A stretch of DNA of 64,000 bases from a virus. Of this stretch, positions 3,334 to 48,749 are shown piece by piece. The notes below the pieces were generated by a model. It was not told the DNA's origin, did not search any database, and was given only the letters and a program-made list of their open reading frames with translations. The DNA is taken from the IMG/VR virus record IMGVR_UViG_3300025679_000001, positions 1 through 64,000 of that record, one strand, 5' to 3'. Position 1 is the first letter of the stretch, and each line of letters begins with the position of its first letter. A program made the translations under genes and the position numbers.

Positions 3334-3777
3334 ATGGCCTGGCACGGGAAGTTCAACCCACAAAACCCACAGAAGTATGCTGGGGATCCGAAGGGAATCG
3401 TGTACAGGTCGTCACTCGAGTTCAAGATGATGCGGCGGTTCGACTCGAGCCCCCACGTAGTCCTGTGGAGCTCGGAGGAGTTCATCGTCCCCTACTACGA
3501 CCCTGTCAAGAAGAAAGCTAGGCGCTACTTCCCGGACTTCGTGATAAAGTACGTAGGCGCCGACGGCACTGAACAGGTCCAGATGATCGAGGTCAAGCCC
3601 TACAAGGAGACGATAAAGCCCTCCCATAAGCCGGGGAAGCAGCGCCGGAGGATCCTCAACGAGGAGCTCACGTGGGCTAACAACCAGGCTAAGTGGGCGG
3701 CAGCCGAGGAGTACTGCAGCAGTAAGGGCTGGAAGTTCGTGAAGATCACCGAGAAGGAGATCGGCAGGACTTACTAG
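3334..3777 (+). CDS. gp4: head completion nuclease gp4-like
   Basis: 147-aa ORF. GKFNPQNPQKYAGDPKGIVYRSSLEFKMMRRFD..WSSEEFIVPYY..RRYFPDFVIKY...IEVKP is the conserved gp4 signature of T4-like phages (D..EVK nuclease core). Confidence 0.75.
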   Translation: MAWHGKFNPQNPQKYAGDPKGIVYRSSLEFKMMRRFDSSPHVVLWSSEEFIVPYYDPVKKKARRYFPDFVIKYVGADGTEQVQMIEVKPYKETIKPSHKPGKQRRRILNEELTWANNQAKWAAAEEYCSSKGWKFVKITEKEIGRTY

Positions 3778-14869: not shown

Positions 14870-15253
14870 GAATTAGTGTCCGGCCTTCTGTTGCAAGGTC
14901 GCCGGACTAACCCCGAGAACTTAGGCCGCGAGGGCCGCGTTGCTCATGTCAACGTTGTCGTTGGCAATTATGGTTTTGATCAATTACGGAATCACCCGAC
15001 TAGTCTCCGAAACCTCTCTCTGCGCCAGTCGATCCTGTTTCGGGCCCATCAGAGATACACCGAGCTTTCGGGCAATTAACCCCTAAAGTTTCCACCAACC
15101 TCTTTCGCCCTCCCGTGCACAGGTGGAACGACCCAGTCAGCCTATCGGTAAGACCGATCCAAGCGTTTGCTCGGTCGGGTGTATCTTTGGTGGACCCGCC
15201 GAGGTACTGCCCCTCGGGTCCTGTACGCGATCGTTGTAACATCAACGACCAGT
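14870..15253 (-). ncRNA. large structured non-coding RNA / 5' leader of the gp33-gp59-gp32 operon (class unknown)
   Basis: About 385 nt between the promoter at 15260..15288 and the gp33 RBS. 13-bp long-range helix 15169..15186/15053..15065. Helix 15037..15043/15007..15013, with its loop (15027..15035) pairing to 14988..15001 (pseudoknot). Several local hairpins. Confidence 0.5.
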
Positions 15254-15259
15254 AATCCG

Positions 15260-15288
15260 TATTTATTACAGCGTGACTAGGCTGTCAA
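15260..15288 (-). promoter_or_regulatory. promoter TTGACA-N17-TAAATA (also contains the late-like AATAAATA)
   Basis: TTGACA (15288..15283) overlaps the TGA of the upstream gene. 17-nt spacer, TAAATA. The same stretch reads AATAAATA. Confidence 0.5.
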
Positions 15289-15821
15289 CCGTCGGTGCTC
15301 TTTTTTTCAGGCTCCGGCGCAACTTCTTTCTTCTGTTTCTTCACCGGCGGGGCTTCGTTGGTGACTCTGCTCGCCTCGATCTTAGCGAGGAAGGCGGCAG
15401 CTTCGTTGACCTTCGCGAGGATGGCCCTGGCTTCTTTCTCGTTGAGGAGCGTCCCGTCAGCGAACGCTGAGACCAGGCGTGTGTTGACCTCCTTCTCGTC
15501 GTAGAGGCCGATGATGTTCTTGTACTCGATCCTGATCCTGTCGCCGTTCAGCATCCCGTGCTCGTCAGTGAAGACGAGGTCGTTGGCGATGATGCAGGTC
15601 ATCGACCCGTCCGCGTCCTTCTCTTTGACGATGACCCACGGGCGCTCGGTCTTGTGCCTGGTCGTAGTGATCCCGATCTTGACGTAGTCACCCTCTACCA
15701 CTTTTTTGCGGTCCTCGAGTGAAGGCTGAGACCACGTCTCGGGATGGTCCTTAGCCATCTGGTCGCCGTCGATGAGCCCGTAAGCGTTAGTGAGTCCTCT
15801 TGAGTTTACTTTACTGACCAT
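15285..15821 (-). CDS. hypothetical protein
   Basis: 178-aa ORF with a Lys/Glu/Pro-rich C-terminal tail. No motif recognised. Confidence 0.5.
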   Translation of the reverse strand: MVSKVNSRGLTNAYGLIDGDQMAKDHPETWSQPSLEDRKKVVEGDYVKIGITTTRHKTERPWVIVKEKDADGSMTCIIANDLVFTDEHGMLNGDRIRIEYKNIIGLYDEKEVNTRLVSAFADGTLLNEKEARAILAKVNEAAAFLAKIEASRVTNEAPPVKKQKKEVAPEPEKKSTDG

Positions 15822-20096: not shown

Positions 20097-21275
20097 CTAA
20101 TCCTTATAAGCGTCCCTGACTTCGTTTCCCGCCATCAATACTAAGAACGGGCGGAGCTGGGTCTCGACCACAATGGTCGCCCCCTGATACGCGAGAACCT
20201 CGCTGAGCCTGCGATAGGCCATCGGAGACTCGTCGACGTCTCCTCCTACGAGGTGAACGCCCTTAGCGTGCATCCACTCGTCCATCTGCTCGCGGGTGAT
20301 CTTCGGCTCGCGCTTCCACTCGCCAGTGTTCTTGTCCTTCTTGCCCTTGGCCTCCATTCGACCCATGACTCGGCCAGAGCCGTGAACGGTGGAGTAGAGG
20401 GCTTCCTTGGACTCGGGCGTATCAACACCGTGGATGATCACGGCGTTGTCGCCCATAGAACCACCCACAAAGCCGCGCTGACCAGGCCACGCCGGCGTAG
20501 CGCCCTTGCGGACAACCCAGTACTTCTCTCCACCGTGCTCCTCGAGCCAGGCGAAATTGTGGTGATTGTGAACAGTGTCGAGGACGGACGCCCCGAGGAT
20601 CTTGCAGACGTTGGACACGACCCACTCGCGACCAGCGTAGGCGTAGCGACCCGCGAGGTGCATGGCCGCGAGATAGCGGACCCCGATCTCGGAATCAGCG
20701 TCTACGATGGTCGGAGTAGCGTCGACTCCGTCGACACCTCCGGCGAGGTTGAGGTACTTGGTGGCGGACTTGTGTCCGAGGCCTCTCGACCCGAAGTGTA
20801 CGCCGACCCAGACATAGCCGTCATCGCCCTCGAAGAGGTCGATGTAGTGGTTGCCGGAGCCGACGGTTCCGAGCTGCCCGTAGGCGAGACGCTTGAGGTC
20901 CTCAACGTCCGCGGCCTTCCATGCTTCCTCGTCGTCGAAGAGGGCAACGTCCTTGATGTCATTGCGAGAGACGGAGTAGTTGCCGCCCATCCCGAAGTCG
21001 ATCTTCTTATGAATCTTGCGGGCGATCTCCGGGATGTCCCCGATGTCCGAGAACTTGCGGGAGGTCTTGACCGCCATGTTCCCACAGGCGATGTCGAAGC
21101 CTACACCCGAGATCGAGATCTGATCTTTGTATGCCACGACCCCGCCGACCGGGTGCGAGCAATAACCCTGGTGTCCGTCCGCGCAGATAACGCCCTGCTT
21201 GACGTTGCCTACGGCGAGACAGTTCCACATCTGCTTGATGGTGTTGTCCTGGTGGTCACCGAATATCTTAAGCAT
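20097..21275 (-). CDS. rtcB: RNA-splicing ligase RtcB
   Basis: 392-aa ORF. ADGHQGY, GFDIACGN, HFGSRGLGH, HNHHNF and GSMGD are canonical RtcB motifs. Confidence 0.9.
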   Translation of the reverse strand: MLKIFGDHQDNTIKQMWNCLAVGNVKQGVICADGHQGYCSHPVGGVVAYKDQISISGVGFDIACGNMAVKTSRKFSDIGDIPEIARKIHKKIDFGMGGNYSVSRNDIKDVALFDDEEAWKAADVEDLKRLAYGQLGTVGSGNHYIDLFEGDDGYVWVGVHFGSRGLGHKSATKYLNLAGGVDGVDATPTIVDADSEIGVRYLAAMHLAGRYAYAGREWVVSNVCKILGASVLDTVHNHHNFAWLEEHGGEKYWVVRKGATPAWPGQRGFVGGSMGDNAVIIHGVDTPESKEALYSTVHGSGRVMGRMEAKGKKDKNTGEWKREPKITREQMDEWMHAKGVHLVGGDVDESPMAYRRLSEVLAYQGATIVVETQLRPFLVLMAGNEVRDAYKD

Positions 21276-21970: not shown

Positions 21971-21999
21971 CAGTTAAACTATTCTTTAACGGATGTCAA
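21971..21999 (-). promoter_or_regulatory. possible promoter TTGACA-N17-TAACTG
   Basis: TTGACA at 21999..21994, inside the 3' end of the DUF1003 gene. Weak -10. Confidence 0.3.
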
Positions 22000-22458
22000 C
22001 TTATCATGCACTTCTGCAGTCAGCTCGGCCACTTTCTCCGTCAGGGTCTTGACTGTGTTGGTCAGATCGGTGTTCTGCTTCATGAGGTCGATCAGCAGCT
22101 TCATCTCAGTGGAGTTCGTCGCCGCGAGCTCCTCGCGGTGCTGCGCGTCAGCCATCGCGCCCGCCTTGTCCCTGTCAGCTTGCCTCGTCTGGGCAAGGAG
22201 GATGAGGGGCGCTGCGTAGGCGGCCTGGAGCGAGAACGCGAGGTTCAGGAAGATGAACGGGTAGACGTCGAACGTGACCCACCCCAACGCGTTGACCACT
22301 ATCCACGCGGCGACTACCGCCGTCTGGATGACTATGAACTTGGGAGTCCCGAAGAACCTAGCGAAGGACTCTGCCTGCTTTCCGAACCAACCGTCGCCGA
22401 AGGGTGAGTTAAGGTGTACGTGAGGAAGGTGAAAGCGAAAGAAGTGGCCTGTGCTCAT
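21979..22458 (-). CDS. DUF1003-family membrane protein
   Basis: 159-aa ORF. FGTPKFIVIQTAVVAAWIVVNAL..FDVYPFIFLNLAFSLQAAYAAPLILLAQTRQADRDK matches the DUF1003 pattern. Confidence 0.6.
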   Translation of the reverse strand: MSTGHFFRFHLPHVHLNSPFGDGWFGKQAESFARFFGTPKFIVIQTAVVAAWIVVNALGWVTFDVYPFIFLNLAFSLQAAYAAPLILLAQTRQADRDKAGAMADAQHREELAATNSTEMKLLIDLMKQNTDLTNTVKTLTEKVAELTAEVHDKLTSVKE

Positions 22459-22547
22459 TTCTTTTTCTCAAGCTTCTCGAGCTGCTTGGCTCGCTTTGCG
22501 ATCTCTTTCTTACCCTGGTGAGGTGTGTACTTGTTTGGTTTGCTCAT
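22455..22547 (-). CDS. small basic peptide (30 aa)
   Basis: Own translation: MSKPNKYTPHQGKKEIAKRAKQLEKLEKKK. GGAGAA RBS. ATGA-coupled to the DUF1003 gene. Confidence 0.35.
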   Translation of the reverse strand: MSKPNKYTPHQGKKEIAKRAKQLEKLEKKK

Positions 22548-22562
22548 CTTGTTTCTCCATGA

Positions 22563-22808
22563 TTAACTTTTAGATCTTGAACTATCCACCTGCCGCAGAA
22601 AGCCGTCATAACGTTTCGGAGTAAGTTCCAGTGCCCCCTCTGGGTATATCTGTACGCTGCCGACCTCTTTTTCGGACTCGACGCAGTAGCCAAAGTGCGT
22701 CAGGCTCGAACTGTAAAAGCCAACGATTCTTCCCGTCCAAGAAGATCCTTTAATCTTGTTGACTCGCTGGCCGAGCCGGAACTTTCCGTTGTGCACGATC
22801 TCGCTCAC
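22563..22808 (-). CDS. dfrB: type B (R67/DfrB-like) dihydrofolate reductase
   Basis: 81 aa from GTG 22808 (GTGA-coupled). FRLGQRVNKIKGSSWTGRIVGFYSSSLTHFGYCVESEKEVGSVQIYPEGALE versus R67 [52 protein letters not shown]. The catalytic VQIYP is conserved. Confidence 0.75.
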   Translation of the reverse strand: MSEIVHNGKFRLGQRVNKIKGSSWTGRIVGFYSSSLTHFGYCVESEKEVGSVQIYPEGALELTPKRYDGFLRQVDSSRSKS

Positions 22809-23599
22809 TGATTCTGATTCTCCATGAAGTCGACGAACCCGAGGAACTCCTTCCACAGGAACTCCTCTCGTTCTGCGCTGAACATGTAGTCGGCGTGCTT
22901 CTTGGCCACAGTCCAATAGGACTCGTACCGCGAGGTCGTCACCATGTCCATCATCTCCATCAGGGAGCTCGCGAAAGCTACGCCGTAGGCGGTGTTGTCG
23001 ATCGAGTGCTGTGAGGAGAAGCCGTGGGAGCCCATCATCTCTAAGAACCCCGAGTGCCTGGGCGTTAGGACTAGGCAGCCGGCGCTCATCGCCGTCGCCA
23101 CCTCAGCGTTGAAGGACTCGAACGACATGGCCGGGTGGGCGAAGACGTTGGCGCTCTTCATCTCTGCTATGAGCTCTTCTCGAGAGGGAGAGACCCGCAC
23201 CTTCGTAGTGTTCTTGTCGACTAGGTTCATGGCGATAGGGCCGGGGTCGGACGAGCAGCAGGCGACCAATGAGAATTTATTCCCGTACTTGATGGCGATC
23301 CCGTTGACGATCGAGAGGAGCATAGTTAGCGTACCGTCGTTCGGGTCTCCGGCCCAGATTAGCCTCGGCCTGTCCGAGGGCTTGACGTCAACTTCGATCC
23401 TCTGGACAGAGGGTGAAATGATCGACCTGTACTTGGCCTGAACGTAGTACAGGTGCCGCTGTTGCCATGAGGTCGTGGTTACCATTGAGAAGACTGACCC
23501 ACCGAACTTTTCAGTGTTCCAGCGGCGGTCGATGGCCCACACCGTTCCCTTGGCCGCGGCTTCGTACTCTGTAGTTATGTCGGTGCTCTGTATCTTCAT
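22805..23599 (-). CDS. glycosyltransferase (GT-B, GT1/GT4-like)
   Basis: 264-aa ORF. REELIAEMKSANVFAHPAMSFESFNAEVATAMSAGCLVL is the GT-B C-terminal E..(7)E-type motif. Confidence 0.5.
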   Translation of the reverse strand: MKIQSTDITTEYEAAAKGTVWAIDRRWNTEKFGGSVFSMVTTTSWQQRHLYYVQAKYRSIISPSVQRIEVDVKPSDRPRLIWAGDPNDGTLTMLLSIVNGIAIKYGNKFSLVACCSSDPGPIAMNLVDKNTTKVRVSPSREELIAEMKSANVFAHPAMSFESFNAEVATAMSAGCLVLTPRHSGFLEMMGSHGFSSQHSIDNTAYGVAFASSLMEMMDMVTTSRYESYWTVAKKHADYMFSAEREEFLWKEFLGFVDFMENQNQ

Positions 23600-25832: not shown

Positions 25833-26050
25833 TCTATCGTGTTCCCCTTGTAGAAACCTTTCATCCGGTTGAGCACGCGCTCGAAACCAGGGTCCCTCTT
25901 CTTTATGGCCATCGGATCGATAAGGTGCACCGGGACGAGGACGTGTTCCTTGGTCGGGTTCTCTACGAGATACTCCTGCAGCTCGTCCCAGGACATCCAC
26001 AGTTCCTTGGCCTTCTTGGTTTTCTTGTCCTGGACGGTGTAGACTGGCAC
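25829..26050 (-). CDS. hypothetical protein
   Basis: 73-aa ORF. Confidence 0.5.
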   Translation of the reverse strand: MPVYTVQDKKTKKAKELWMSWDELQEYLVENPTKEHVLVPVHLIDPMAIKKRDPGFERVLNRMKGFYKGNTIE

Positions 26051-26250
26051 TAGTCTACACTCGACTCTATGATCTCGTAGCCGCCCTCGTCAAAGATCTC
26101 AGTGAACGTCTGTTTCTCGAAGAACCCGTAGCTTATCTGAAGCTCGATAGCTTCTTTAATCGCGGCGATAGCTTTCCCTTGAGTGCTGAACACTCGGTTG
26201 TGATTGAAGCCTACGTCCCACTCGCCTTCTTGAACGCGGTACACCATCAT
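26050..26250 (-). CDS. hypothetical protein
   Basis: 66-aa ORF, coupled to both neighbours. Confidence 0.5.
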   Translation of the reverse strand: MMVYRVQEGEWDVGFNHNRVFSTQGKAIAAIKEAIELQISYGFFEKQTFTEIFDEGGYEIIESSVD

Positions 26251-26669
26251 GACAATAGGTCCGGGAACGCCTTCTTGACCACGGCCTTGGTGAGACCCTG
26301 GTACGGAGAAGTCTTGTCCTTCATGTGTATGATCAGGTTGGCGTCACCGGGGACGAGGTCCTCAATAAGTTGCTGGAACATCAGCTCGCGCTTCCCCTGC
26401 TTGAGGTTCGGGTTCCCGCCCTCGACGTAGTGGTAGAACTTCCTCACCTCGCGAAAGAGCACCGACGGGTCGGCGTCGTTTGACGTGGTGAACGACGGGG
26501 CGCCGGGAGGGAGGAGGAACTTCGAGTCGTCGAACATGTACTTGAGGACTGCTCTGAGGGGGACGGCATACCGCTCCGGAAAGTTCTGAAGGAAGCCTAT
26601 GCGCTCCTTGTCAGTGTCGTAGTTCTGGATCAGAGAGAGAACGGTGGATAGTGCCTGTGGTGCTGCCAT
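26247..26669 (-). CDS. hypothetical protein
   Basis: 140-aa ORF. Confidence 0.5.
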   Translation of the reverse strand: MAAPQALSTVLSLIQNYDTDKERIGFLQNFPERYAVPLRAVLKYMFDDSKFLLPPGAPSFTTSNDADPSVLFREVRKFYHYVEGGNPNLKQGKRELMFQQLIEDLVPGDANLIIHMKDKTSPYQGLTKAVVKKAFPDLLS

Positions 26670-26682
26670 TAGAGTGGTGTCC

Positions 26683-27573
26683 TCATGATACGAATTCCTG
26701 TATGTCTTGCATTAAGTTTCTGAGACCAGCTTCCACGAAGTATGCTTGGACGCTAGCCCTAGTGTTGGTCGTCGGTCTGCTGTATTTATCCACGATGTCG
26801 GCGACGATGTCGTCCGGAACCTGCTTGAGGTCCACGAGGATCTCGTTTCGCTCCCAGTTCTTCTTCTTCTCGGGAGTGTCTAGGAAGGTGTTCCCGGCGT
26901 CGACGAGCCACTTCGCCTCGTTCACCTGGGTGATGGGCTTCTGTCTCTTCTCCTTCACAACCAGCGTGTCGTCGTCGGAGAGGTAGTTGGGAACGCCGTC
27001 GCCGACGTCGCCGCAAATGATCTTAGAGCGCAGGTGCGTCCCGGGAACGCCGGTGATCCAGCGCTTCCTGATGTGGTCCCACTGGTGAACGCCCTCGCCG
27101 TGGAGCTGTACGAAGTCGTGGTCCCCGGAGACGATGAGGATAGGTTTCGGCCTGTTGAAGATGTCGACCGGGCGATTGCGCTCGTAGTGGACGATGGCCC
27201 CGATGACATCGTCGGCCTCGGCCCTGTCGTTGAATATCGTCGTGTACGGCATGTACGTCTGGATCTCGACCCTGATCTTCTCGAGCGTGGCGAATATCAT
27301 TCCCCAGTCGAGGGCTGACTCGTCCCTGGCCTTTTTCCTGACAGCCTTGTAGTAGGGAAAGTAGTCCCTGCGCCAGACGTTGCGGCCGTCGCAGCAGATC
27401 ACCATCTCACCGTACTCCTTGGTGAACTTCTGTCGTATGGATTTGATCGTGCTGAGGACCATGTGGCGGAGTAGGCCCTCAGACAGGTCAGAGGCGTCAG
27501 AGCCGTTCGAGGTTCCGACCATGAGGTTGGCTATCATCACTGGCTGAAGGTCAAGAAGGATCATGCCGGCCAC
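26683..27573 (-). CDS. rnh: RNase H / FEN-type 5'-3' exonuclease
   Basis: 296-aa ORF. WRRDYFPYYKAVRKKARDESALDW, YMPYTTIFNDRAEADDVIG, VSGDHDFVQLH and the C-terminus YFVEAGL...IQEF align along the length of T4 Rnh. Confidence 0.85.
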   Translation of the reverse strand: MAGMILLDLQPVMIANLMVGTSNGSDASDLSEGLLRHMVLSTIKSIRQKFTKEYGEMVICCDGRNVWRRDYFPYYKAVRKKARDESALDWGMIFATLEKIRVEIQTYMPYTTIFNDRAEADDVIGAIVHYERNRPVDIFNRPKPILIVSGDHDFVQLHGEGVHQWDHIRKRWITGVPGTHLRSKIICGDVGDGVPNYLSDDDTLVVKEKRQKPITQVNEAKWLVDAGNTFLDTPEKKKNWERNEILVDLKQVPDDIVADIVDKYSRPTTNTRASVQAYFVEAGLRNLMQDIQEFVS

Positions 27574-28166
27574 CCGTTCATGAGTTGCTTGTAACCCCTA
27601 ATGACGCCGTGCATACACATGTGGTGAATGTCCTCTACTACTTCGTAACAGTCGGAGGCCGCCCAGATTTGGTCGAGGTGATGCTCCATCGCAGTTCCTA
27701 TGTCTTCTGGTCCCGTGACCATTTCCTTGACTGAGTTGTTGAACGCGAAGCCAGTCATAGTGAGGACCTTCATTTTAGTTTTCAGTGCACGAAGAACTGC
27801 TAGGATTATGTTCTGTGAGTTTCCAGACGAACTGATAGCTATCAGGATGTCGTCCTTAGAAGCGCTGTAGTACTTGAGCTGGTTGCTGAACATCCTATCG
27901 TGTCCAGTATCGTTAGCCGTCGCAGTCATGATAGGAGTGTTGTCTGAGAGACAGATCACCAGCGGTTTCTTATGAGAAGTGCCATCCCAAGCTGCTTTCA
28001 TCAGGTCCCCTGCAAAGTGTGAGGCGATGGCTGACGAGCCTCCGTTCCCGATGACGAACACTTTTCCGCCGTTGTTAGCACACTCGTCGATGTACTTTGG
28101 CCAGCGCTCTATCCCCACGGTGTGGGAAGTCTCTATAGCCTTAGCCAGCTCTTCGAAATGGTTCAT
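27561..28166 (-). CDS. SIS-domain sugar-phosphate isomerase (GmhA-like)
   Basis: 201-aa ORF. VFVIGNGGSSAIASHFAGDL and DILIAISSSGNS are SIS / phosphoheptose isomerase motifs. Confidence 0.7.
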   Translation of the reverse strand: MNHFEELAKAIETSHTVGIERWPKYIDECANNGGKVFVIGNGGSSAIASHFAGDLMKAAWDGTSHKKPLVICLSDNTPIMTATANDTGHDRMFSNQLKYYSASKDDILIAISSSGNSQNIILAVLRALKTKMKVLTMTGFAFNNSVKEMVTGPEDIGTAMEHHLDQIWAASDCYEVVEDIHHMCMHGVIRGYKQLMNGWPA

Positions 28167-29158
28167 ATCGTCACGTACCCTTTCTGCACGAATGACGTCC
28201 CAGACGACACTGGAACGTGCACTGCTCTCACATCTTTTAATGCCGTCACCAGCGAAGGTACACTGTGCGGTTCAGTAACAAACATCATGTAGCCGGCCAT
28301 GCCTGCCCCGAGCAGCTTTCCCCCGATCACTCCGGGAACAGCGCAACCGATGCTGTATATTTCGTCTATCAGGGCGTTGGACACCTTGGATGAAAAGTTC
28401 TTCTTGATCTCCCAAGCCTCAGCCATCGCTCTTTTAAGAATTCGGGGCCCGTCGACTTCTAACTGCGACGCAGCGAACCCAAGTTGGGCCAGCTCCACTA
28501 AGCGCTTGAGCTCCTTCACTTGTCGCTCGGCGTTAGCCGACTGTTCCTTGAGTATTACTGACGAGTCCCTGGTGCCGCCGATATAGAAGAGTTGGATCCT
28601 GTTGTCCCCGATGAGCCAGGACCTATCGATCCTTTTAGATTTTACCTCGATGTTCATACTAGTCGTACTCACCTTGAACTGGTGAAAGTTGAGGCCTCCT
28701 CCAGCGCAGGCCTGGGCATGGTCTTGGTAACCGCACCAGGAGCCGGTAGACCTCTCGATCTCAAAGTTGTCTTCGGCCCTGAACTCGTATGTCGTTTTTT
28801 TAATAGCATTACGGAGCGCCATGACCCACGCAGCCGAAGATCCTAGACCAGTACCTTTCGTAGGAACATCATCGAAGAACCTGATGTGATCAAACAGTAG
28901 TCTAGCGCTACCATACTTGAGAACAGCTTGGGTGAGTTCAGTATCGACGAAAGGGTCTATCATAAGTTTTGACGCTAAGCCCTCAACGTAGTTCCTCTTC
29001 ACCACACAGTAGATGTACTTGTCAATGGACGTCGAAAGACATGCGCCCTCTCCATTTGCATAGATAAAGTCTGGGATGTCGGTACCACCGCCGATGATCG
29101 AAGCCCTGAGGGGAACCTTGACCATGAAGATGTCGCTAGACGGTGATGTGCTTGTCAT
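28163..29158 (-). CDS. GHMP-family sugar kinase (HddA-like)
   Basis: 331-aa ORF with an AGGAG RBS. RASIIGGGTD and PTKGTGLGSSAAWVMAL are GHMP motifs I and II. KLLGAGMAGYMMF is motif III. Confidence 0.7.
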   Translation of the reverse strand: MTSTSPSSDIFMVKVPLRASIIGGGTDIPDFIYANGEGACLSTSIDKYIYCVVKRNYVEGLASKLMIDPFVDTELTQAVLKYGSARLLFDHIRFFDDVPTKGTGLGSSAAWVMALRNAIKKTTYEFRAEDNFEIERSTGSWCGYQDHAQACAGGGLNFHQFKVSTTSMNIEVKSKRIDRSWLIGDNRIQLFYIGGTRDSSVILKEQSANAERQVKELKRLVELAQLGFAASQLEVDGPRILKRAMAEAWEIKKNFSSKVSNALIDEIYSIGCAVPGVIGGKLLGAGMAGYMMFVTEPHSVPSLVTALKDVRAVHVPVSSGTSFVQKGYVTI

Positions 29159-30092
29159 GAAGAATCTCCTTCAGAAAGTTGTTCCACTGCTCGCCGCGAG
29201 ACTCCCACGAGAATCGAGTTCCGGCGTCCGAGGCGATCTTTTTTCTTAAGTGGTTCATCGTGTCCCCGCTCATCTCCTTGATCGTGTCCATGAAGGTCAG
29301 AAGGTGTCGAGTGAAGAGGTTGGCGTGGTCCAAAGGGTCCTCCATATACTGGTAGGTCTTGGACAAGCCGAAGCCAGTCTCGTAGAGGCACCCGTAGTTC
29401 GAGTGGATGCACACCAGCCCGGCGGACATCGCCTCCATGAGAGCGCGACATCCGGTCTCCGGCCACGTGCACGGGTAGGCGAAGCAGTGGGTCTTAGTAA
29501 GGGCTTCCCTCACGACCGAGTTCGGCACGGCACCGTGAAACGTCATGTTAGGGTGCTCGTCGATGAACTTGAAGAGGGGCTTGTAGGGCTCGTCCCTCTG
29601 CTCCCACCCGTAGATCGAGAAGCTGGAGAAGACGTCAAGGTGGACGTTAGGGTAGACCTTCGAGAGGGCGTCGAACGCTCCCACCAGGACGTTCAGGCCT
29701 CGGTGAGGGGTGGTATGATAGACGAACCTGATCTGACCGGACCAGTCAAGCGCTTCTGGCTTCGGGAAAGGGTCAACAGCGTTCGGTAGGACGACGCACT
29801 TCGACCAAGGGATGTTGAACTTCTGGATGAACCTCTGCATCTGCCAGTTGGAGACGAACACGATCCTCTCGAACTTCTTCCAGCCACCGTCGGCCAGGTG
29901 GTTCATCTCCGGGTCGTCCTCGGTGTCGTGCACCCAGTAGATCGGGATCAGTCCGTCCTTTAGTCCGCGAAAGCGGGAGGGGATGACTTGGAACTTCGTC
30001 AGGACGTTCGTGTCAAGGCGCGACTCGAGCTCTCCCATCGACAGCTCAGTGCCACCCTTCGAGTTGGCGTTCACTTCGTTGCGGTCGATCAT
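29136..30092 (-). CDS. glycosyltransferase (GT4-like)
   Basis: Trimmed to ATG 30092 (MIDRNEVN), ATGA-coupled. PCTWPETGCRALMEAMSAGLVCI is the GT-B C-terminal motif. Confidence 0.55.
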   Translation of the reverse strand: MIDRNEVNANSKGGTELSMGELESRLDTNVLTKFQVIPSRFRGLKDGLIPIYWVHDTEDDPEMNHLADGGWKKFERIVFVSNWQMQRFIQKFNIPWSKCVVLPNAVDPFPKPEALDWSGQIRFVYHTTPHRGLNVLVGAFDALSKVYPNVHLDVFSSFSIYGWEQRDEPYKPLFKFIDEHPNMTFHGAVPNSVVREALTKTHCFAYPCTWPETGCRALMEAMSAGLVCIHSNYGCLYETGFGLSKTYQYMEDPLDHANLFTRHLLTFMDTIKEMSGDTMNHLRKKIASDAGTRFSWESRGEQWNNFLKEILHDKHITV

Positions 30093-30874
30093 ACTATTGC
30101 CAGCTTTCTGTTCCTGATAAACTCGTTCATGTAACCCAGCGCTTGGGCGTGGTCCCTGCACTTGAATATGTTGTATGAGTGGAAGGCGTACTCCATGTCT
30201 TCGTCGTTACCGTAGAGGCCGAACCCGTCGCCGAAGTAGTACGAGATGTTCATGTCCGGCTCGATGCAATGGAAAGCGTGGTTCTTCTGTGTCCCGTTCA
30301 TGGCGATGTCTATTCCGGTCTCTCCACCGACGTAAAAGATGTGGTTCGGGTAAGACTCCCTGAGGCGCTTGACGATCTTCTCGCGCTCGTGATTCTCTTT
30401 GTCGTACTCGATATAAGCCGCCCTCTGCTCCGGGGTGTACGCCTTCCCGAGGACGCTGAAGGAGGCGTACCTACCCAGCGAGTGCATTACCATGTGAGGT
30501 TCAGTCTTCTCGGTGAATCCCGAGTCGGCCGCTATGGAGCTGAGTTCGTCGACCAGTCCCTCCCACTTGATAGCTTCGGCGTCAGTGGTCTCCTCGTCCT
30601 CGACGAGCTGCCCGTCGACCATGCTGTGAAGCCTAGACGCGAGGCCCGTAAAGATCCCGTCGATAGTATAAAATTCATAATCCTCGTTATAGTGGAGGAG
30701 GTCGTGCTTCTCAAATACCGTCTCGAAGTTGCTGGCAGTGACGATGTAGACCTTAGCGTTAAAGAGGTGCTTGAACAGCCCGAGAGTATAAAGCGTGGAG
30801 TCGGATATAGCTTTACCCGGCTCGCACAGCGTACCGTCGAGGTCGAAGAAGAAGTGTGGGCCATTATTGTTCAT
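30089..30874 (-). CDS. HAD-IIB phosphatase / phosphomannomutase-like protein
   Basis: 261-aa ORF. FFFDLDGTL motif I. The C-terminus VGGETGIDIAM..GTQKNHAF....YYFGDGFGLYGNDEDM resembles eukaryotic-type PMM (GG...D....G.DK....FFGD...GGNDYE). Confidence 0.55.
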   Translation of the reverse strand: MNNNGPHFFFDLDGTLCEPGKAISDSTLYTLGLFKHLFNAKVYIVTASNFETVFEKHDLLHYNEDYEFYTIDGIFTGLASRLHSMVDGQLVEDEETTDAEAIKWEGLVDELSSIAADSGFTEKTEPHMVMHSLGRYASFSVLGKAYTPEQRAAYIEYDKENHEREKIVKRLRESYPNHIFYVGGETGIDIAMNGTQKNHAFHCIEPDMNISYYFGDGFGLYGNDEDMEYAFHSYNIFKCRDHAQALGYMNEFIRNRKLAIV

Positions 30875-31107
30875 AGGTGCGGCTCCCTAGAAAAGTACTC
30901 GACGCACTCGTCGAACCCTCCGACGCGGCGGTCGCCGACGAAGAACTGCGGGACAGTCTTAACTTCCGGGAAGCGCTTCTTGAGCTCGGCGAGGTTCTCT
31001 ATGTCCTCCTCGACGTTCACCTCGGTGTAGGTGACACCGGTGTTGGCCAGCATCTCCTTGAGCCTCGAGCACCACAAGCAGTTGTTCTTGGTGTAGAGAG
31101 TGTTCAT
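30871..31107 (-). CDS. glutaredoxin/NrdC-like thiol-disulfide oxidoreductase
   Basis: Trimmed to ATG 31107 (TAATG overlap). LYTKNNCLWCSRLKEML...VPQFFVGDRRVGGFDE is the glutaredoxin CxxC fold signature. Confidence 0.75.
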   Translation of the reverse strand: MNTLYTKNNCLWCSRLKEMLANTGVTYTEVNVEEDIENLAELKKRFPEVKTVPQFFVGDRRVGGFDECVEYFSREPHL

Positions 31108-33404: not shown

Positions 33405-33638
33405 ATGTTACCATCAACACCATACACCCACGTCTCACTCTCGATCATCGAGATCGACGACGTCGGATCACCGACCCTCGTCACCTCTCTTGGCGACTTC
33501 AAGACGACACCCGACGCGTCAGGATTCTTCAACACCTACGCCCAGGGCAAATATCCTGTCAAGATGCAAGACACCTACAAGACCGGGATCACTAACATCT
33601 ACAAAAACGGTTACGTCGTCATACAACCGCAACGTTAA
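33405..33638 (+). CDS. hypothetical protein
   Basis: 77-aa ORF with a GGAGG RBS and its own promoter. Convergent 4-nt overlap with nrdJ. Confidence 0.5.
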   Translation: MLPSTPYTHVSLSIIEIDDVGSPTLVTSLGDFKTTPDASGFFNTYAQGKYPVKMQDTYKTGITNIYKNGYVVIQPQR

Positions 33639-35557
33639 AGAATCTCGCAGCCCCCGGCGACGCACGCCAGCTCCTGGGAACCAGTCGTAGTGTCTCCCTT
33701 CTCTATCTTGGCGAGGTTCTCCCAGTCTATGCTCTTGGGGGTCTCGGCTAGGAGAGACTTGTACGTCTTCTGGTCGATCTCCTCGTAAGGGGCCTGCTTG
33801 TAGACGTGGTCGGCGTGAGGGAGAAAGCTTACACCGGTCATGTGGTCGAAGTTCCTGTACACCCAGGCGCCGACGTCGAGCCACTCACCCTCCCTGACGG
33901 TGACGGTGATCGACGGGTTGTGGTCGCACCAATGGTCGGAATAGACCTTCCAGAGCTCGAGCTGCTCTATCGCCGTCATGTCGTCCCTGAACACGGCGTT
34001 CTTAGGCGACTCGACTGGGAAGCTGACGACCAGAGTGTGCTCGGGCTTCATCACGTCGGGCTCGACCTTGAAGCCTGAGTCGATCATCACCTGGGCTAGT
34101 GGGTCCTTGCGGTCCATGCGGGCGCGCCTGATGTAGTACTGCGAGTGCCTGGCGTGGATGCCGGAACCAGAGTTCACTAGTTGGGAGACGGTGCCGGACG
34201 GCTTAACGCAGGTGATCGCCGCAGATGGAGGAATGTTAAGTATTCCGGCCCACATCTTGTTCACTTCCCTAGCTCTAAACCTGAGCCTCGCTAGGAGATT
34301 TGGCAGGTCCTTGGACTTGCCGTTGGTGAGGGGGTTGTCCATGATCCCCGTGAGCGACACGCCGAGGAGGCGCTCCTCCTCACAGTTATGTTGCCACTTC
34401 TTGGAGATGTACTTGAAGTCTGTCAGCGTGGACTGGAACGTGCCGATGATCGCGGCCAGCTCTACTTTTCTCATGAGGTCCTCCTCAGTGTCGCCCGCCT
34501 TGATCACCACCTCGGAGAGGTTGCAGAACTCCCTGTCGCGGAGCAGGATCTCTCCGCAGGGGTTAGTGCCGAACTCGTGGTCGGAGTTGCGGGCGATCGT
34601 CTCGCACTTGGCCTTGGCGGCCATGCGGTTGAAGATCCCGCGCTCCCCGGACTTGGAGTCGTAGAGAGCTTTCCACTCGTCCATGAACACCCCGACCTCG
34701 GGCTTCTCTGTGTAAGCGGCTGAGTTGTTGGCCAGTCTGCGATGTCCCTGAGTCTCCCACCACTGACCGGACTTGGCGGAGCGCATTCGGTCGTCGCTGA
34801 GGTTGGACAGCGAGATGAGGGCTGACCTGCGAACGCCACCAACGACCACGATGTCGGCGATCTTACAGACTAGGTCGTGGGCTTCCAAGGATGAGAGTTT
34901 TCTGCCGGCCGCCTTCTTGAACATAGACACCGTAAACTCGAAGAGTTCGACCAGGGGCGCGGGCCCTGAAGCCCTGCCACCAAAAGTCATGAGCGGGGCG
35001 CCAGCCGGGCGAACTGCCGAGACGTCCCAGGACGGGATCTGTCCAGTGTAAAGTAGAGAGATGAGCTCCTTGAGACCCTTAGCCCACCCGAGTTTGGAGT
35101 CCTGAACCTTGATCACGATGTCCGACTTGTGAAACTCTTCACCAATTGCGGGGAGCTGGGAGACGAACTGACGCTCTACCGAGAAGCCGACTCCGGTGCC
35201 GCACATCAGAATGTAGAGGAGTTCGTCGAAAGCGGCGACTCGGTTTATAGCCAGGAAGCTGCAGTTGTACGCCGCGATGTGGTCGCGGGAGAGAGCGGGA
35301 CCAGCAGTCATCATGGTCCTCATGGATGGCATGACGTCGAGACTTAGGATGTGGTCGCGAATCGTGGCCATCGTCTTGTGTACGGTGGCGCTAGAGGTTC
35401 CGCCAGTAACATTGTCTATGTGCTCGTTGAAGAAGTCGACCCACCTGTTGACGGTCTCCTCCCAGGTCTCTCTCCTAGCTAGCTCGTGGTTGTATCGCGA
35501 ATAGCGCGACATGTGAATGTAAGACTGAAAAACAGTTGGTAGTGTAGTCTGGGTCAT
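33635..35557 (-). CDS. nrdJ: class II (adenosylcobalamin-dependent) ribonucleotide reductase
   Basis: 640-aa ORF. YNCSFL, GTGVGFSV, GGVRRSA, GTNPCGEILL and FCNLSEV are RNR class II core motifs. Confidence 0.85.
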   Translation of the reverse strand: MTQTTLPTVFQSYIHMSRYSRYNHELARRETWEETVNRWVDFFNEHIDNVTGGTSSATVHKTMATIRDHILSLDVMPSMRTMMTAGPALSRDHIAAYNCSFLAINRVAAFDELLYILMCGTGVGFSVERQFVSQLPAIGEEFHKSDIVIKVQDSKLGWAKGLKELISLLYTGQIPSWDVSAVRPAGAPLMTFGGRASGPAPLVELFEFTVSMFKKAAGRKLSSLEAHDLVCKIADIVVVGGVRRSALISLSNLSDDRMRSAKSGQWWETQGHRRLANNSAAYTEKPEVGVFMDEWKALYDSKSGERGIFNRMAAKAKCETIARNSDHEFGTNPCGEILLRDREFCNLSEVVIKAGDTEEDLMRKVELAAIIGTFQSTLTDFKYISKKWQHNCEEERLLGVSLTGIMDNPLTNGKSKDLPNLLARLRFRAREVNKMWAGILNIPPSAAITCVKPSGTVSQLVNSGSGIHARHSQYYIRRARMDRKDPLAQVMIDSGFKVEPDVMKPEHTLVVSFPVESPKNAVFRDDMTAIEQLELWKVYSDHWCDHNPSITVTVREGEWLDVGAWVYRNFDHMTGVSFLPHADHVYKQAPYEEIDQKTYKSLLAETPKSIDWENLAKIEKGDTTTGSQELACVAGGCEIL

Positions 35558-44431: not shown

Positions 44432-45052
44432 TCATTCTTCCTTCCACGGTGCGTCGCCGGAACTCGGGATGTTCTTCGGCCTAAACTTCTTGCCTAGGAC
44501 GCGCTCCCTGTCGTCGTAGTTGTCTATGAGCTCCAGCCTGTTCACGATTATGTTGAGCGCCACGGGGGCAAAATTGTTAACGTCGGCGCCGACGTTGATA
44601 GCTCGTCCCGGGATCTCGAACTTCCCATCAGGGCCCTCGAAGACGTTGTGAACGTGCCCGTACACGTGATAGGAGTTACGGTGGAAGCCATGCCACTCTA
44701 GGATCGGATAGTGATACATGTGAAAGTGTAGGCCGTGAACTTTGGTGATGAGCTCAGGATAGCACCCGGCCCACGGCAGCCTCTTGATCTTCGCGTCGTC
44801 GTGATTGCCGTGAATCAGGAACTTCTTGCCGTTGAGCGCCCTGAAGTAGAGTGACGGGTCCTTGGCCGCACGAAAAGAGAAGTCTCCGACGTGGTAGACC
44901 GTGTCGTTAGGCTTGACTCTCTTGTTCCAGTTCTCGATCAGGACCTCGTCCATCTCCTCGACGCTGGCGAAGGGGCGCTTCGAGTGCGCTATGATCTTCT
45001 CGTGCCCGAGATGGGTGTCGCTGGTGAAGTATACGCTGTCTGTGTTGCTCAT
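44432..45052 (-). CDS. calcineurin-like metallophosphoesterase
   Basis: 206-aa ORF. FTSDTHLGH, VGDF, HGNHD and YGHVHN are the full metallophosphoesterase motif set. Confidence 0.8.
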   Translation of the reverse strand: MSNTDSVYFTSDTHLGHEKIIAHSKRPFASVEEMDEVLIENWNKRVKPNDTVYHVGDFSFRAAKDPSLYFRALNGKKFLIHGNHDDAKIKRLPWAGCYPELITKVHGLHFHMYHYPILEWHGFHRNSYHVYGHVHNVFEGPDGKFEIPGRAINVGADVNNFAPVALNIIVNRLELIDNYDDRERVLGKKFRPKNIPSSGDAPWKEE

Positions 45053-46269
45053 GCTGCCTTCCTATCGCTTTTGATGACGCCGACCTCGGAGTGCGTGCTC
45101 TCTGGCGATCGGCCGATCGAGATGGTCTTGAAAAAGTGCGTACAGTCTGCATCCTCTACGAGCTTGGTGACACCGGCGAGGTCTGGAGTATATACGTCAC
45201 GAGTGTGCTTGTTGTTGACGAACTGGATTGCGTCGAGCTGGTCGCAGCAGGTCACGATGAGGTTCGACCTGGCGTTGCCGCTCGGACCGATAGGAAGCGA
45301 CGTTATAATGTCATGGTCGATTCTCTTGAAGACGGAGTGGTCGAGATGGCCAGTACGAAAGCCGCCCTGCCACTCGTTGTGAACGTTAGTCTCGTCCTTG
45401 AAGCGAGGAATGTACGTTGACCTCTCAAGATCACTGAGGTGTTCATGAGCGAGGGGCCCTTTGCCGTGGCGGGTCACGTATGCTCTGGTGACGTAGAACC
45501 ACTCACACTTGACCTTTGGACTAAGGCCAAACAGACCAGCCTTGTACACGTTGTGACCTCCAGTTCTCGACCTGGTCACGTGAGGCATGATTCCAGTCAC
45601 CTCGTCGAGACCGAGACCCTGCCCGGATTCGTAGATGACGCGCTTCGGGTCCCCGACGGCGCTCATGTCTATCTTCAGGCCCTCGATGATAGAGTCCGTC
45701 GACAGGAAGCTCAGGTCCGTCGGCCATACTGGTGCGTCCATGAACTTCTCGATCTCCTCTTTGGAGACGACGCCTATTAAAGCGAGACGCTTCTTATAGT
45801 AAGCTTTGATATTGTTAGAGTCAGCTCCACTGCCGATCTGAGCGTAGCGGGTAACGCACTCGTTGATCCCGTGCCCGCAAGAACCGTGACGGTTGGCACC
45901 GCGGGCCGTCTCGATCAACTGGTTCGCGATCATGTCGAGATTCGAGACGATCTTAGCGTGCTTGTGAACGTACACCTTGGGGGTGAAGCCGAACGTTTTC
46001 TCGAACGCCTCGATCTCCTTCTGGAGGAGGACCGGGTTGACGCAAAATGTGTGGTCGAGAACGGTAGCAGCACCTTTAGGAGCGCCGGAGCCGAGCTGGT
46101 TGAACACCACCCTAGAACCGTTGGTCTCGACGGTGTGCCCGGCCTGTGCTCCACCGTTGTGCTTAACGACGACGGTGTCCGAGTCAGAGAGCAGGTGTGT
46201 AGTTCGACCCTTTCCCTCGTCCCCGTAGTTGGCGCCGATGACGGCGAACACTTCCTCTAAAGCTGCCAT
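45049..46269 (-). CDS. adenylosuccinate synthetase family protein (divergent PurA-like; PurZ-type function not excluded)
   Basis: 406-aa ORF. P-loop GANYGDEGKGR, GGAQAGHT, TRHGKGPLAHE, GGFRTGHLD and TCCDQLD parallel PurA motifs. PurA GTTGRGIGPAY is replaced by HGSCGHGINEC. Confidence 0.7.
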   Translation of the reverse strand: MAALEEVFAVIGANYGDEGKGRTTHLLSDSDTVVVKHNGGAQAGHTVETNGSRVVFNQLGSGAPKGAATVLDHTFCVNPVLLQKEIEAFEKTFGFTPKVYVHKHAKIVSNLDMIANQLIETARGANRHGSCGHGINECVTRYAQIGSGADSNNIKAYYKKRLALIGVVSKEEIEKFMDAPVWPTDLSFLSTDSIIEGLKIDMSAVGDPKRVIYESGQGLGLDEVTGIMPHVTRSRTGGHNVYKAGLFGLSPKVKCEWFYVTRAYVTRHGKGPLAHEHLSDLERSTYIPRFKDETNVHNEWQGGFRTGHLDHSVFKRIDHDIITSLPIGPSGNARSNLIVTCCDQLDAIQFVNNKHTRDVYTPDLAGVTKLVEDADCTHFFKTISIGRSPESTHSEVGVIKSDRKAA

Positions 46270-48670: not shown

Positions 48671-48749
48671 TGGTCCGCCGCCTGGGATTCGAACCCAGAC
48701 TAACTGCCGTTTTGAGTGGCGAGGCCTCTGCCGGTTGGGCTAGCGGCGG
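48671..48749 (-). tRNA. atypical tRNA-like gene (anticodon CAA if the loop is read canonically)
   Basis: Minus strand has a 7-bp acceptor CCGCCGC/GCGGCGG, the T arm CTGGG-TTCGAAT-CCCAG, A73 and an encoded CCA. The D stem has 3 bp. The anticodon stem is imperfect, giving either a 9-nt loop ACTCAAAAC or a 7-nt loop closed by A.C. The variable loop is short. Confidence 0.5.

Follow-up and report, generated by a model that had tools for sequence, protein, structure and literature searches.

A homologue of R67-type (type B) dihydrofolate reductase encoded in the early region of a T4-like phage

The window considered here is a 64,000-nucleotide (nt) stretch of viral DNA (positions 1 to 64,000 of the IMG/VR record IMGVR_UViG_3300025679_000001) that belongs to a T4-like phage. 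It carries on its minus strand a small dfrB-like gene, whose 81-amino-acid (aa) product is, judging from its sequence, a homologue of DfrB/R67-type dihydrofolate reductase (DHFR) that has kept an intact pore motif and is unrelated to FolA and to Frd of phage T4. The gene and the codons discussed below are the following (the residue number in the protein plus 14 gives the R67 position; all conservation counts come from an alignment of 105 database homologues).

22563..22808, minus strand: dfrB-like gene encoding an R67-type (type B) DHFR homologue of 81 aa (Pfam, PDB, AlphaFold2 (AF2)/Foldseek)
22644..22655, minus strand: codons GTA CAG ATA TAC for V52-Q53-I54-Y55, equivalent to the pore (B4-strand) motif V66-Q67-I68-Y69 of R67
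22755..22757, minus strand: codon for K18, equivalent to R67 Lys32 (K in 104/105 homologues)
22737..22739, minus strand: codon for W24, equivalent to R67 Trp38 at the dimer-dimer interface (105/105 homologues)
22665..22667, minus strand: codon for E48, at the position of R67 His62, where Glu is found instead

The gene starts with GTG at 22808, ends with a TAA stop at 22563-22565 and specifies the protein V/MSEIVHNGKFRLGQRVNKIKGSSWTGRIVGFYSSSLTHFGYCVESEKEVGSVQIYPEGALELTPKRYDGFLRQVDSSRSKS. Its start codon and the TGA that ends the upstream gene (22805..23599) overlap by 4 nt as GTGA, and a GGAG sequence is located 11 nt 5' of the start. An identical 81-aa product was obtained from independent gene calls in three assemblies (ENA, Logan and JGI), and the annotated frame has the highest codon score among the six frames.

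The only Pfam family matched by the protein is PF06442 (DHFR_2, 'R67 dihydrofolate reductase'), with an E-value of 3.4e-18 and 65.7 bits (gathering score 25 bits), residues 7-61 being aligned with positions 21-75 of the 78 positions of the profile; no similarity to PF00186 or to any FolA-type protein was found among its Pfam matches. An exhaustive HMMER search places it as a typical member of PF06442 among 1,697 representatives (50% identity clusters). When compared with all PDB sequences using phmmer, it retrieved R67-type DHFR chains only, the best being 1VIE (E=1.6e-14). The AF2 monomer model, computed with 60 homologues, displays five beta strands with a mean predicted local distance difference test (pLDDT) score of 84, exceeding 92 in the core. 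Its seven best PDB matches in Foldseek are all R67 DHFR (target-normalised template modelling (TM) scores of 0.93-0.95, root-mean-square deviation of 0.7-1.0 Å, 52-56% identity), and the next one, a chromo domain (E=6e-3), is four orders of magnitude weaker. These results bear out the assignment to the R67/DfrB type proposed in a preliminary description of the window, as well as its statement that the protein is unrelated to FolA and T4 Frd. The identity of ~45% over ~57 residues that had been estimated there was slightly conservative, as 31/55 residues (56%) of the protein are identical to R67 within R67 residues 21-75, and 48% when all 64 aligned columns are counted.

The R67 residues that have a kept equivalent in the protein (K32, W38, Y46, T51, S59, G64, S65, V66, Q67, I68, Y69 and P70) are all invariant or nearly so across the homologues; within the pore motif, V66, Q67 and Y69 show no variation, and position 68 is Ile in 104/105 of them. 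In R67, Lys32 stands at the mouth of the pore and anchors the negatively charged tails of NADPH and dihydrofolate (DHF). The role of Trp38 has been described previously (PMC9835603). The first description was right on the SVQIYP strand, on W24 as the equivalent of Trp38 and on the replacement of His62 by Glu, and the likeness to R67 is not one of SH3-like fold alone, the VQIYP pore residues being present. Compared with the R67/DfrB1 structures (1VIE, 2RK1, 2GQV), the protein thus belongs to the same Pfam family, has a superposable SH3-like barrel and shares K32, W38, Y46, T51, S59 and GSVQIYP. It differs from R67 by Glu in place of His62 and Phe in place of Trp45, by 6 residues instead of ~20 disordered residues before the barrel and by a unique 20-residue C-terminal tail; furthermore, it is encoded within a string of phage genes and not by an integron cassette or plasmid.

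The replacement of His62 had raised the concern that the assembly of the protein may differ from that of R67, a concern that comparison with the other homologues does not support. Position 62 is Glu in 90/105 of them and His in only 15/105, so that Glu62 is the norm outside the clinical alleles. It is also found in phiM9 gp002, Rhizobium phage RHph_TM3_3_3 gp049 and Vibrio phage 1.030.O gp25. The last of these genes is located 1.9 kb from a DNA methylase gene and fits the published description of DfrB-H4, which originates from a Vibrio phage, lies within 2 kb of a DNA methylase gene and confers trimethoprim resistance up to 600 µg/ml (PMC9835603). Among the tetramer-interface positions of the protein, W38 and S59 are kept and position 62 is Glu; interface segments are not conserved among active homologues (PMC12486381). 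Given the majority of Glu at this position, its presence in the DfrB-H4-like protein and the unconserved interfaces of active homologues, Glu62 appears to be no argument against assembly and at most predicts the loss of the His-based pH switch.

Homologues of the protein were detected by tblastn in 25 GenBank phage records, many of them annotated as 'dihydrofolate reductase' or 'R67 dihydrofolate reductase', and 306 viral contigs from IMG/VR carry a DfrB relative; the corresponding PHROG family, phrog_31682, is unannotated. Freshwater viromes yielded DfrB2-like genes in 2020 (PMC7265639) and phage homologues were tested in 2023 (PMC9835603). In 2025, a survey of 1,961 dfr genes from lytic phages found 8 that were dfrB (PMC12466917), while another study reported 20 viral homologues, their linkage with ThyA and the absence of FolA, and proposed DfrB as the DHFR of these viruses (PMC12486381). 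Phage homologues of DfrB are hence already known and partly tested and this gene is one more example, which makes its presentation as an unusual phage auxiliary metabolic gene overstated, both by the number of records and by the prior publication of the idea.

The homologues from phiM9, RHph_TM3_3_3 and Vibrio phage 1.030.O show 62-73% core identity (34-40/55) with the protein, with the same motifs and Glu62. Pseudomonas phage PS-1 gp05, which is certainly DfrB-H3 because the published primers encode its peptides, shows 58% identity (30/52) and also has the same motifs. Several phage homologues are extended at the N terminus by long extra domains (167-218 aa), whereas the protein described here is a bare domain. 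Phage phiM9 (KP881232) is likewise T4-like, a myovirus that infects an alphaproteobacterium, and has no annotated frd. Its gp002 (417-620), annotated 'hypothetical protein', matches PF06442 with 77 bits and is 69% identical to the protein. It is located ~1.2 kb upstream of td.2 (147854-148624), on the same strand and across the record junction. The td.2 product, a divergent member of the ThyA family (PF00303, 48 bits), is missed by phmmer with E. coli ThyA and could be a hydroxymethylase rather than a thymidylate synthase; phiM9 also encodes a canonical ThyA (td.1). The two phages differ on this point, as DfrB adjoins a ThyA-family gene in phiM9 whereas none was found near DfrB here.

The other phage DfrB genes lie in an entirely different genomic neighbourhood from this one. 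The DfrB gene is the only gene common to the window and to the best 80 DfrB loci of IMG/VR, and no T4-like gene was found near DfrB on the large IMG/VR contigs (186 kb and 203 kb). DfrB behaves as a mobile accessory gene in many phage backgrounds. In the window, the genes that surround it or were invoked as its context are as follows.

22805..23599, minus strand: upstream gene encoding a putative GT-B type glycosyltransferase of 264 aa (sub-threshold Pfam and weak PHROG matches)
22455..22547, minus strand: Lys-rich open reading frame (ORF) of 30 aa, MSKPNKYTPHQGKKEIAKRAKQLEKLEKKK, called in both assemblies
21979..22458, minus strand: DUF1003 protein of 159 aa (Pfam DUF1003, 92 bits)
20097..21275, minus strand: RtcB RNA ligase
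33635..35557, minus strand: class II (B12-dependent type) ribonucleotide reductase

On the transcribed strand, the order is rnh, then further on PhoH, an exonuclease, a 115-aa protein, the glycosyltransferase-like protein (264 aa) and DfrB, followed by the 30-aa ORF, DUF1003, two small ORFs and RtcB, and further downstream by a transfer-messenger RNA (tmRNA), gp59 and gp32. The 30-aa ORF starts 15 nt past the dfrB stop, has GGAG as its Shine-Dalgarno sequence and is coupled to the DUF1003 gene by an ATGA in which its stop overlaps that gene's start. Between 20000 and 26000, a search of the minus (coding) strand found no sigma-70-like promoter, and the only terminator-like sites on this strand are located inside phoH (~25150) and downstream of RtcB (~20050). 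As no such site lies between phoH and RtcB, none separates DfrB from its immediate neighbours.

The preliminary description had dfrB coupled by its GTGA overlap to a glycosyltransferase gene, inside a T4-like nucleotide-metabolism context. The coupling is supported, whereas the glycosyltransferase label, which relies on sequence comparisons, should be regarded as tentative because the Pfam matches lie just below cut-off: 26.6 bits for Glyco_trans_1_4 (cut-off 27) and 23.5 bits for Glycos_transf_1 (cut-off 26.4). The match to PHROG 2170 (glycosyltransferase) is weak (E=2.7e-4), and no relative of this protein was found in IMG/VR. In the same way, the context is indeed T4-like but is not one of nucleotide metabolism, since the immediate neighbours of dfrB are the glycosyltransferase-like gene, the 30-aa ORF, DUF1003 and RtcB, the ribonucleotide reductase gene being 11 kb upstream. 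This enzyme belongs to class II, whereas T4 and phiM9 encode NrdAB. A cluster of sugar-metabolism genes (27561..31030, minus strand) adjoins rnh and is followed by glutaredoxin. It encodes a GmhA-like SIS-domain phosphoheptose isomerase (201 aa), an unannotated 331-aa protein, a GT1/GT4 glycosyltransferase (318-341 aa) and a phosphomannomutase-like protein (261 aa). Together with the glycosyltransferase-like gene located upstream of dfrB, this cluster could be involved in the modification of the cell surface or of DNA by sugars; no hydroxymethylase was found.

The T4-like genes recognised in the window by Pfam encode gp32, gp59, RNase H, a primase, the baseplate protein gp53, a T4_baseplate-family protein and gp2. 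The window (55% G+C) also encodes PhoH, the class II ribonucleotide reductase, glutaredoxin, RtcB, a PurA-like protein and ClpB-like and AAA ATPases. It is the reverse complement of positions 52,357-116,356 of the ENA contig ERZ27294387 k141_829760 (175,777 bp). The source contig also has Logan counterparts (SRR3985624_16 and _35196), and the coordinates of Logan contig_16 wrap round the ends of the ENA contig. They define a circle of 175,636 bp, to which a 141-nt k-mer overlap is added in the ENA contig. The T4-like genome is therefore circular and complete. The JGI contig of the same phage reaches 348,740 bp, i.e. about twice the genome, and is possibly a concatemer. The part of the genome that was read extends from record position 22,995 to ~133,700, i.e. 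110.7 kb (63% of 175.6 kb), and covers everything from gp43, UvsX and gp41 to gp32. Other features found in the window include the following.

14877..15292, minus strand: permuted tmRNA of the Alphaproteobacteria two-piece type (Rfam RF01849, full-length, 101.5 bits; gathering score 50)
45049..46269, minus strand: PurA-like protein of 406 aa (Pfam Adenylsucc_synt, E=4.7e-38, positions 1-310 of 416 of the profile only)
48671..48749: tRNA Leu-CAA
49743..49819: tRNA Arg-CCT
3334..3777, plus strand: ORF of 147 aa with a Tn7 TnsA-like N-terminal endonuclease domain (PF08722; precomputed Pfam list)

The tmRNA, which ARAGORN did not call, also matches RF04321 (tmRNA_permuted, 94.9 bits) and is located in a stretch devoid of genes immediately upstream of gp59/gp32. 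The DfrB protein has its affinities with Rhizobium and Sinorhizobium phages, as well as with Mesorhizobium, Brucella and Martelella. Because of these affinities and of the alpha-type tmRNA, the host is probably an alphaproteobacterium. The region has no megablast match among GenBank phages, and the closest PhoH and gp32 in GenBank phages and IMG/VR are only 42-48% identical. The phage comes from a deep-branching lineage and has no close sequenced relative in these two sets, and the distance of its nearest PhoH and gp32 makes a comparative analysis of the synteny of the DfrB slot impossible; DfrB was found in 0/80 PhoH-neighbourhood loci. As regards the other features, a PurZ (Z-genome, 2-aminoadenine) reading of the PurA-like protein was rejected for now, its best PDB match being bacterial PurA (E ~1e-19) and no PurZ match being obtained. 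The ORF with the TnsA-like domain lies within the baseplate module but on the opposite strand and may be a free-standing homing or selfish endonuclease. Outside the window (contig record ~26,040-26,506), a protein of the nucleoside 2-deoxyribosyltransferase family (PF05014, 45 bits) is encoded directly downstream of the DNA polymerase gene gp43 and upstream of UvsX; it is a nucleotide-salvage or modification gene.

The activity of the DfrB protein can be assessed from that of its relatives, 148 of which have been tested (PMC12486381). Among the 123 homologues from clusters I and II for which a DfrB1-like tetramer was predicted, 114 conferred trimethoprim resistance, whereas expression was not obtained for the remaining 9 (PMC12486381). 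Prediction of such a tetramer with a positively charged pore agreed with activity at 94% concordance (PMC12486381). In this study, VQIY was exclusive to cluster I of the sequence similarity network (SSN), which includes the clinical DfrB1-10, and a basic residue at position 32 was the most conserved feature of active homologues (PMC12486381). The protein carries both VQIY and a basic residue (K18) at the position equivalent to R67 position 32, and by analogy is probably a real, active type B DHFR.

Family membership, fold, all the residues known to matter, gene integrity and operon context are demonstrated at this locus. Their best explanation, which can be held with good though not full confidence, is a functional tetrameric-pore DHFR used as an auxiliary enzyme by the phage; tetramerisation, catalysis and physiological role are what we infer from them, the first two strongly so in view of the published results. 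The following model of its function can be proposed. The dfrB gene would be co-transcribed with its neighbours as part of the early/middle string of genes that extends from rnh to genes 59 and 32 in a lytic T4-like phage, and its translation would be coupled to that of the upstream gene. Four SH3-like barrels of ~55 residues would then assemble into a homotetramer; the four V-Q-I-Y strands would line its single central pore, with Lys18 (R67 Lys32) at the pore mouths. This pore would place NADPH beside DHF, allowing hydride transfer and the formation of tetrahydrofolate. As an auxiliary metabolic enzyme, the protein would regenerate tetrahydrofolate during infection from the DHF released by an active ThyA-type thymidylate synthase, either that of the host or a possible phage one encoded in the unread part of the genome. 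The supply of thymidylate (dTMP), and possibly also that of purines and formylmethionine (fMet), would thereby be sustained. Trimethoprim would fail to act on the enzyme as an intrinsic side effect of its fold, which would not be the trait under selection.

Several observations weigh against this model. The G+C content at third codon positions of dfrB is 0.585 versus 0.78-0.81 in core genes, which fits lateral acquisition and suggests a comparatively recent accessory gene, and the 20-residue C-terminal tail of the protein is unique and modelled with low confidence. DfrB enzymes are ~100-fold less efficient than FolA, and the authors of PMC12486381 regard a role in binding or oligomerisation as possible. 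With no thymidylate synthase in the 110.7 kb read, the enzyme has no obvious metabolic partner there. More generally, among the best 80 DfrB loci of IMG/VR, whose flanks were searched over up to 10 kb on each side, ThyA was found at only 2/80 and FolA at 0/80, and ThyA is present in 3/10 viral genomes of cluster I (PMC12486381). As ThyA is found at few viral DfrB loci, the logic of a DHFR serving dTMP synthesis is not general.

Some of these facts would suit a different role, in which the SH3-like domain mainly acts as a module that binds a ligand (nucleotide, NADPH or folate) or promotes oligomerisation, the reduction of DHF being promiscuous and playing no part in infection. Such a role has been proposed as the ancestral or native one of the domain (PMC12486381), and it would agree with gene contexts of viral DfrB that are mutually unrelated, down to the sharing of the DfrB gene alone by the window and the 80 IMG/VR loci, as well as with the failure to find a thymidylate synthase in the part of this phage that was read. 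It is nevertheless quite improbable for the protein considered here, which is a stand-alone domain without any fused partner to oligomerise and carries the complete catalytic signature of cluster I (K32, VQIY). Essentially every expressed homologue that has this signature reduces DHF, whereas the viral homologues that are non-catalytic fall into the divergent cluster V and have other motifs (PMC12486381).

If the protein is a functional DHFR, as preferred here, its relation to Frd has still to be considered, since the gene had been described as standing in place of a canonical phage frd. All window ORFs of at least 200 aa and nearly all those of 130-200 aa were scanned with Pfam, precomputed Pfam lists were used for five flanking stretches, and phmmer was run over all ORFs with ThyA, ThyX, FolA, T4 Frd and two phiM9 Td proteins as queries. 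Neither PF00186, PF00303 nor PF02511 (FolA-type DHFR, ThyA and ThyX, respectively) was found in the 110.7 kb read, and the T4 Frd and E. coli FolA queries matched no locus of this genome by phmmer. For ThyX, an approximate query gave no phmmer match and a scan for RHR...S.R returned only spurious Arg-rich frames, so that its absence from the 110.7 kb rests mainly on the Pfam lists. In T4, the gene order is rnh-dsbA-33-59-32-frd.3-frd.2-frd.1-frd-td-nrdA. Here, the DNA downstream of gene 32 encodes a DUF6011 protein and a haloacid dehalogenase (HAD)-like protein, followed by the baseplate module, and the DfrB gene lies ~9 kb upstream of gene 32. DfrB thus shares with T4 frd the broad early region but not the slot.

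The protein and T4 Frd (PF00186) presumably share the same reaction and purpose, i.e. the recycling of DHF in phage DNA synthesis, and are encoded in the same general early region as rnh, 59 and 32. They are otherwise unrelated in sequence and fold, T4 Frd being monomeric and Rossmann-like whereas the DfrB type is a tetrameric SH3-like barrel; moreover, T4 frd has td adjacent and occupies another position relative to gene 32, whereas no td adjoins dfrB here. Replacement of Frd is consistent with the data, the absence of FolA being matched by an equal absence of thymidylate synthase, but it is not established: no FolA was found in the 63% of the genome that was read, and the gene lies elsewhere than in the T4 slot.

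Replacement in a strict sense would mean that DfrB is the sole DHFR of the phage and the obligate partner of a phage ThyA encoded in the unread 65 kb. The lack of any PF00186 protein in 110.7 of the 175.6 kb, including the whole early region from gp43 to gp32, the arrangement of phiM9, with DfrB, two ThyA-family genes and no annotated frd, and the DHFR role put forward for viral DfrB (PMC12486381) all speak for such a replacement. Still, it appears unlikely: ThyA and ThyX are absent from all the parts read, the remaining 65 kb are expected to carry mostly structural and replication-accessory genes (gp44/45/46/47/55-type), the T4 frd/td slot downstream of gene 32 is occupied by other genes and ThyA is not nearby at most viral DfrB loci. 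Another reading, also rather unlikely, is a whole genome without ThyA, ThyX and FolA, in which DfrB would be the only gene of the folate pathway and would act independently of a phage thymidylate synthase. It may then boost the recycling of DHF made by the host or act on another pterin or nucleotide ligand. If true, such a genome would contradict the published model in which DfrB pairs with a phage ThyA and would be unusual for a T4-like phage.

The preliminary description also regarded the gene as a possible reservoir of dfrB-type resistance. DfrB-fold enzymes are intrinsically insensitive to trimethoprim and similarly divergent homologues raise the minimal inhibitory concentration (MIC) when over-expressed in E. 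coli, which by analogy the present gene would probably also do. However, that the phage carries it for trimethoprim resistance, or that it is a mobile determinant or reservoir in the clinical sense, is extremely improbable. The protein obtains 73.4 bits with the NCBIfam model NF000331 (trim_DfrB), below the cut-off of 137. There is no cassette context, since the 4-nt overlap upstream and the 15 nt that precede the next ORF leave no room for an attC and the flanks are T4-like. No integrase or lysogeny gene was seen in the 110.7 kb, the phage being apparently lytic, and PMC12486381 concludes that most homologues have no link with resistance contexts. The gene is an environmental form, distantly related to the clinical alleles, and in its present state it is not a mobilisable determinant, so that the notion of a reservoir was overstated.

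As it is not a recognised resistance allele and is carried by a phage of lytic type, its relevance to public health is low. Its interest lies rather in providing the second clear case, after phiM9, of a phage of the T4 superfamily with a type B instead of a FolA-type DHFR. It lends support to the view, already published, of DfrB enzymes as old and widespread environmental and phage proteins, in which trimethoprim resistance is an accident of the fold. If the phage has no thymidylate synthase, it would also bear on the purpose of DfrB domains in viruses.

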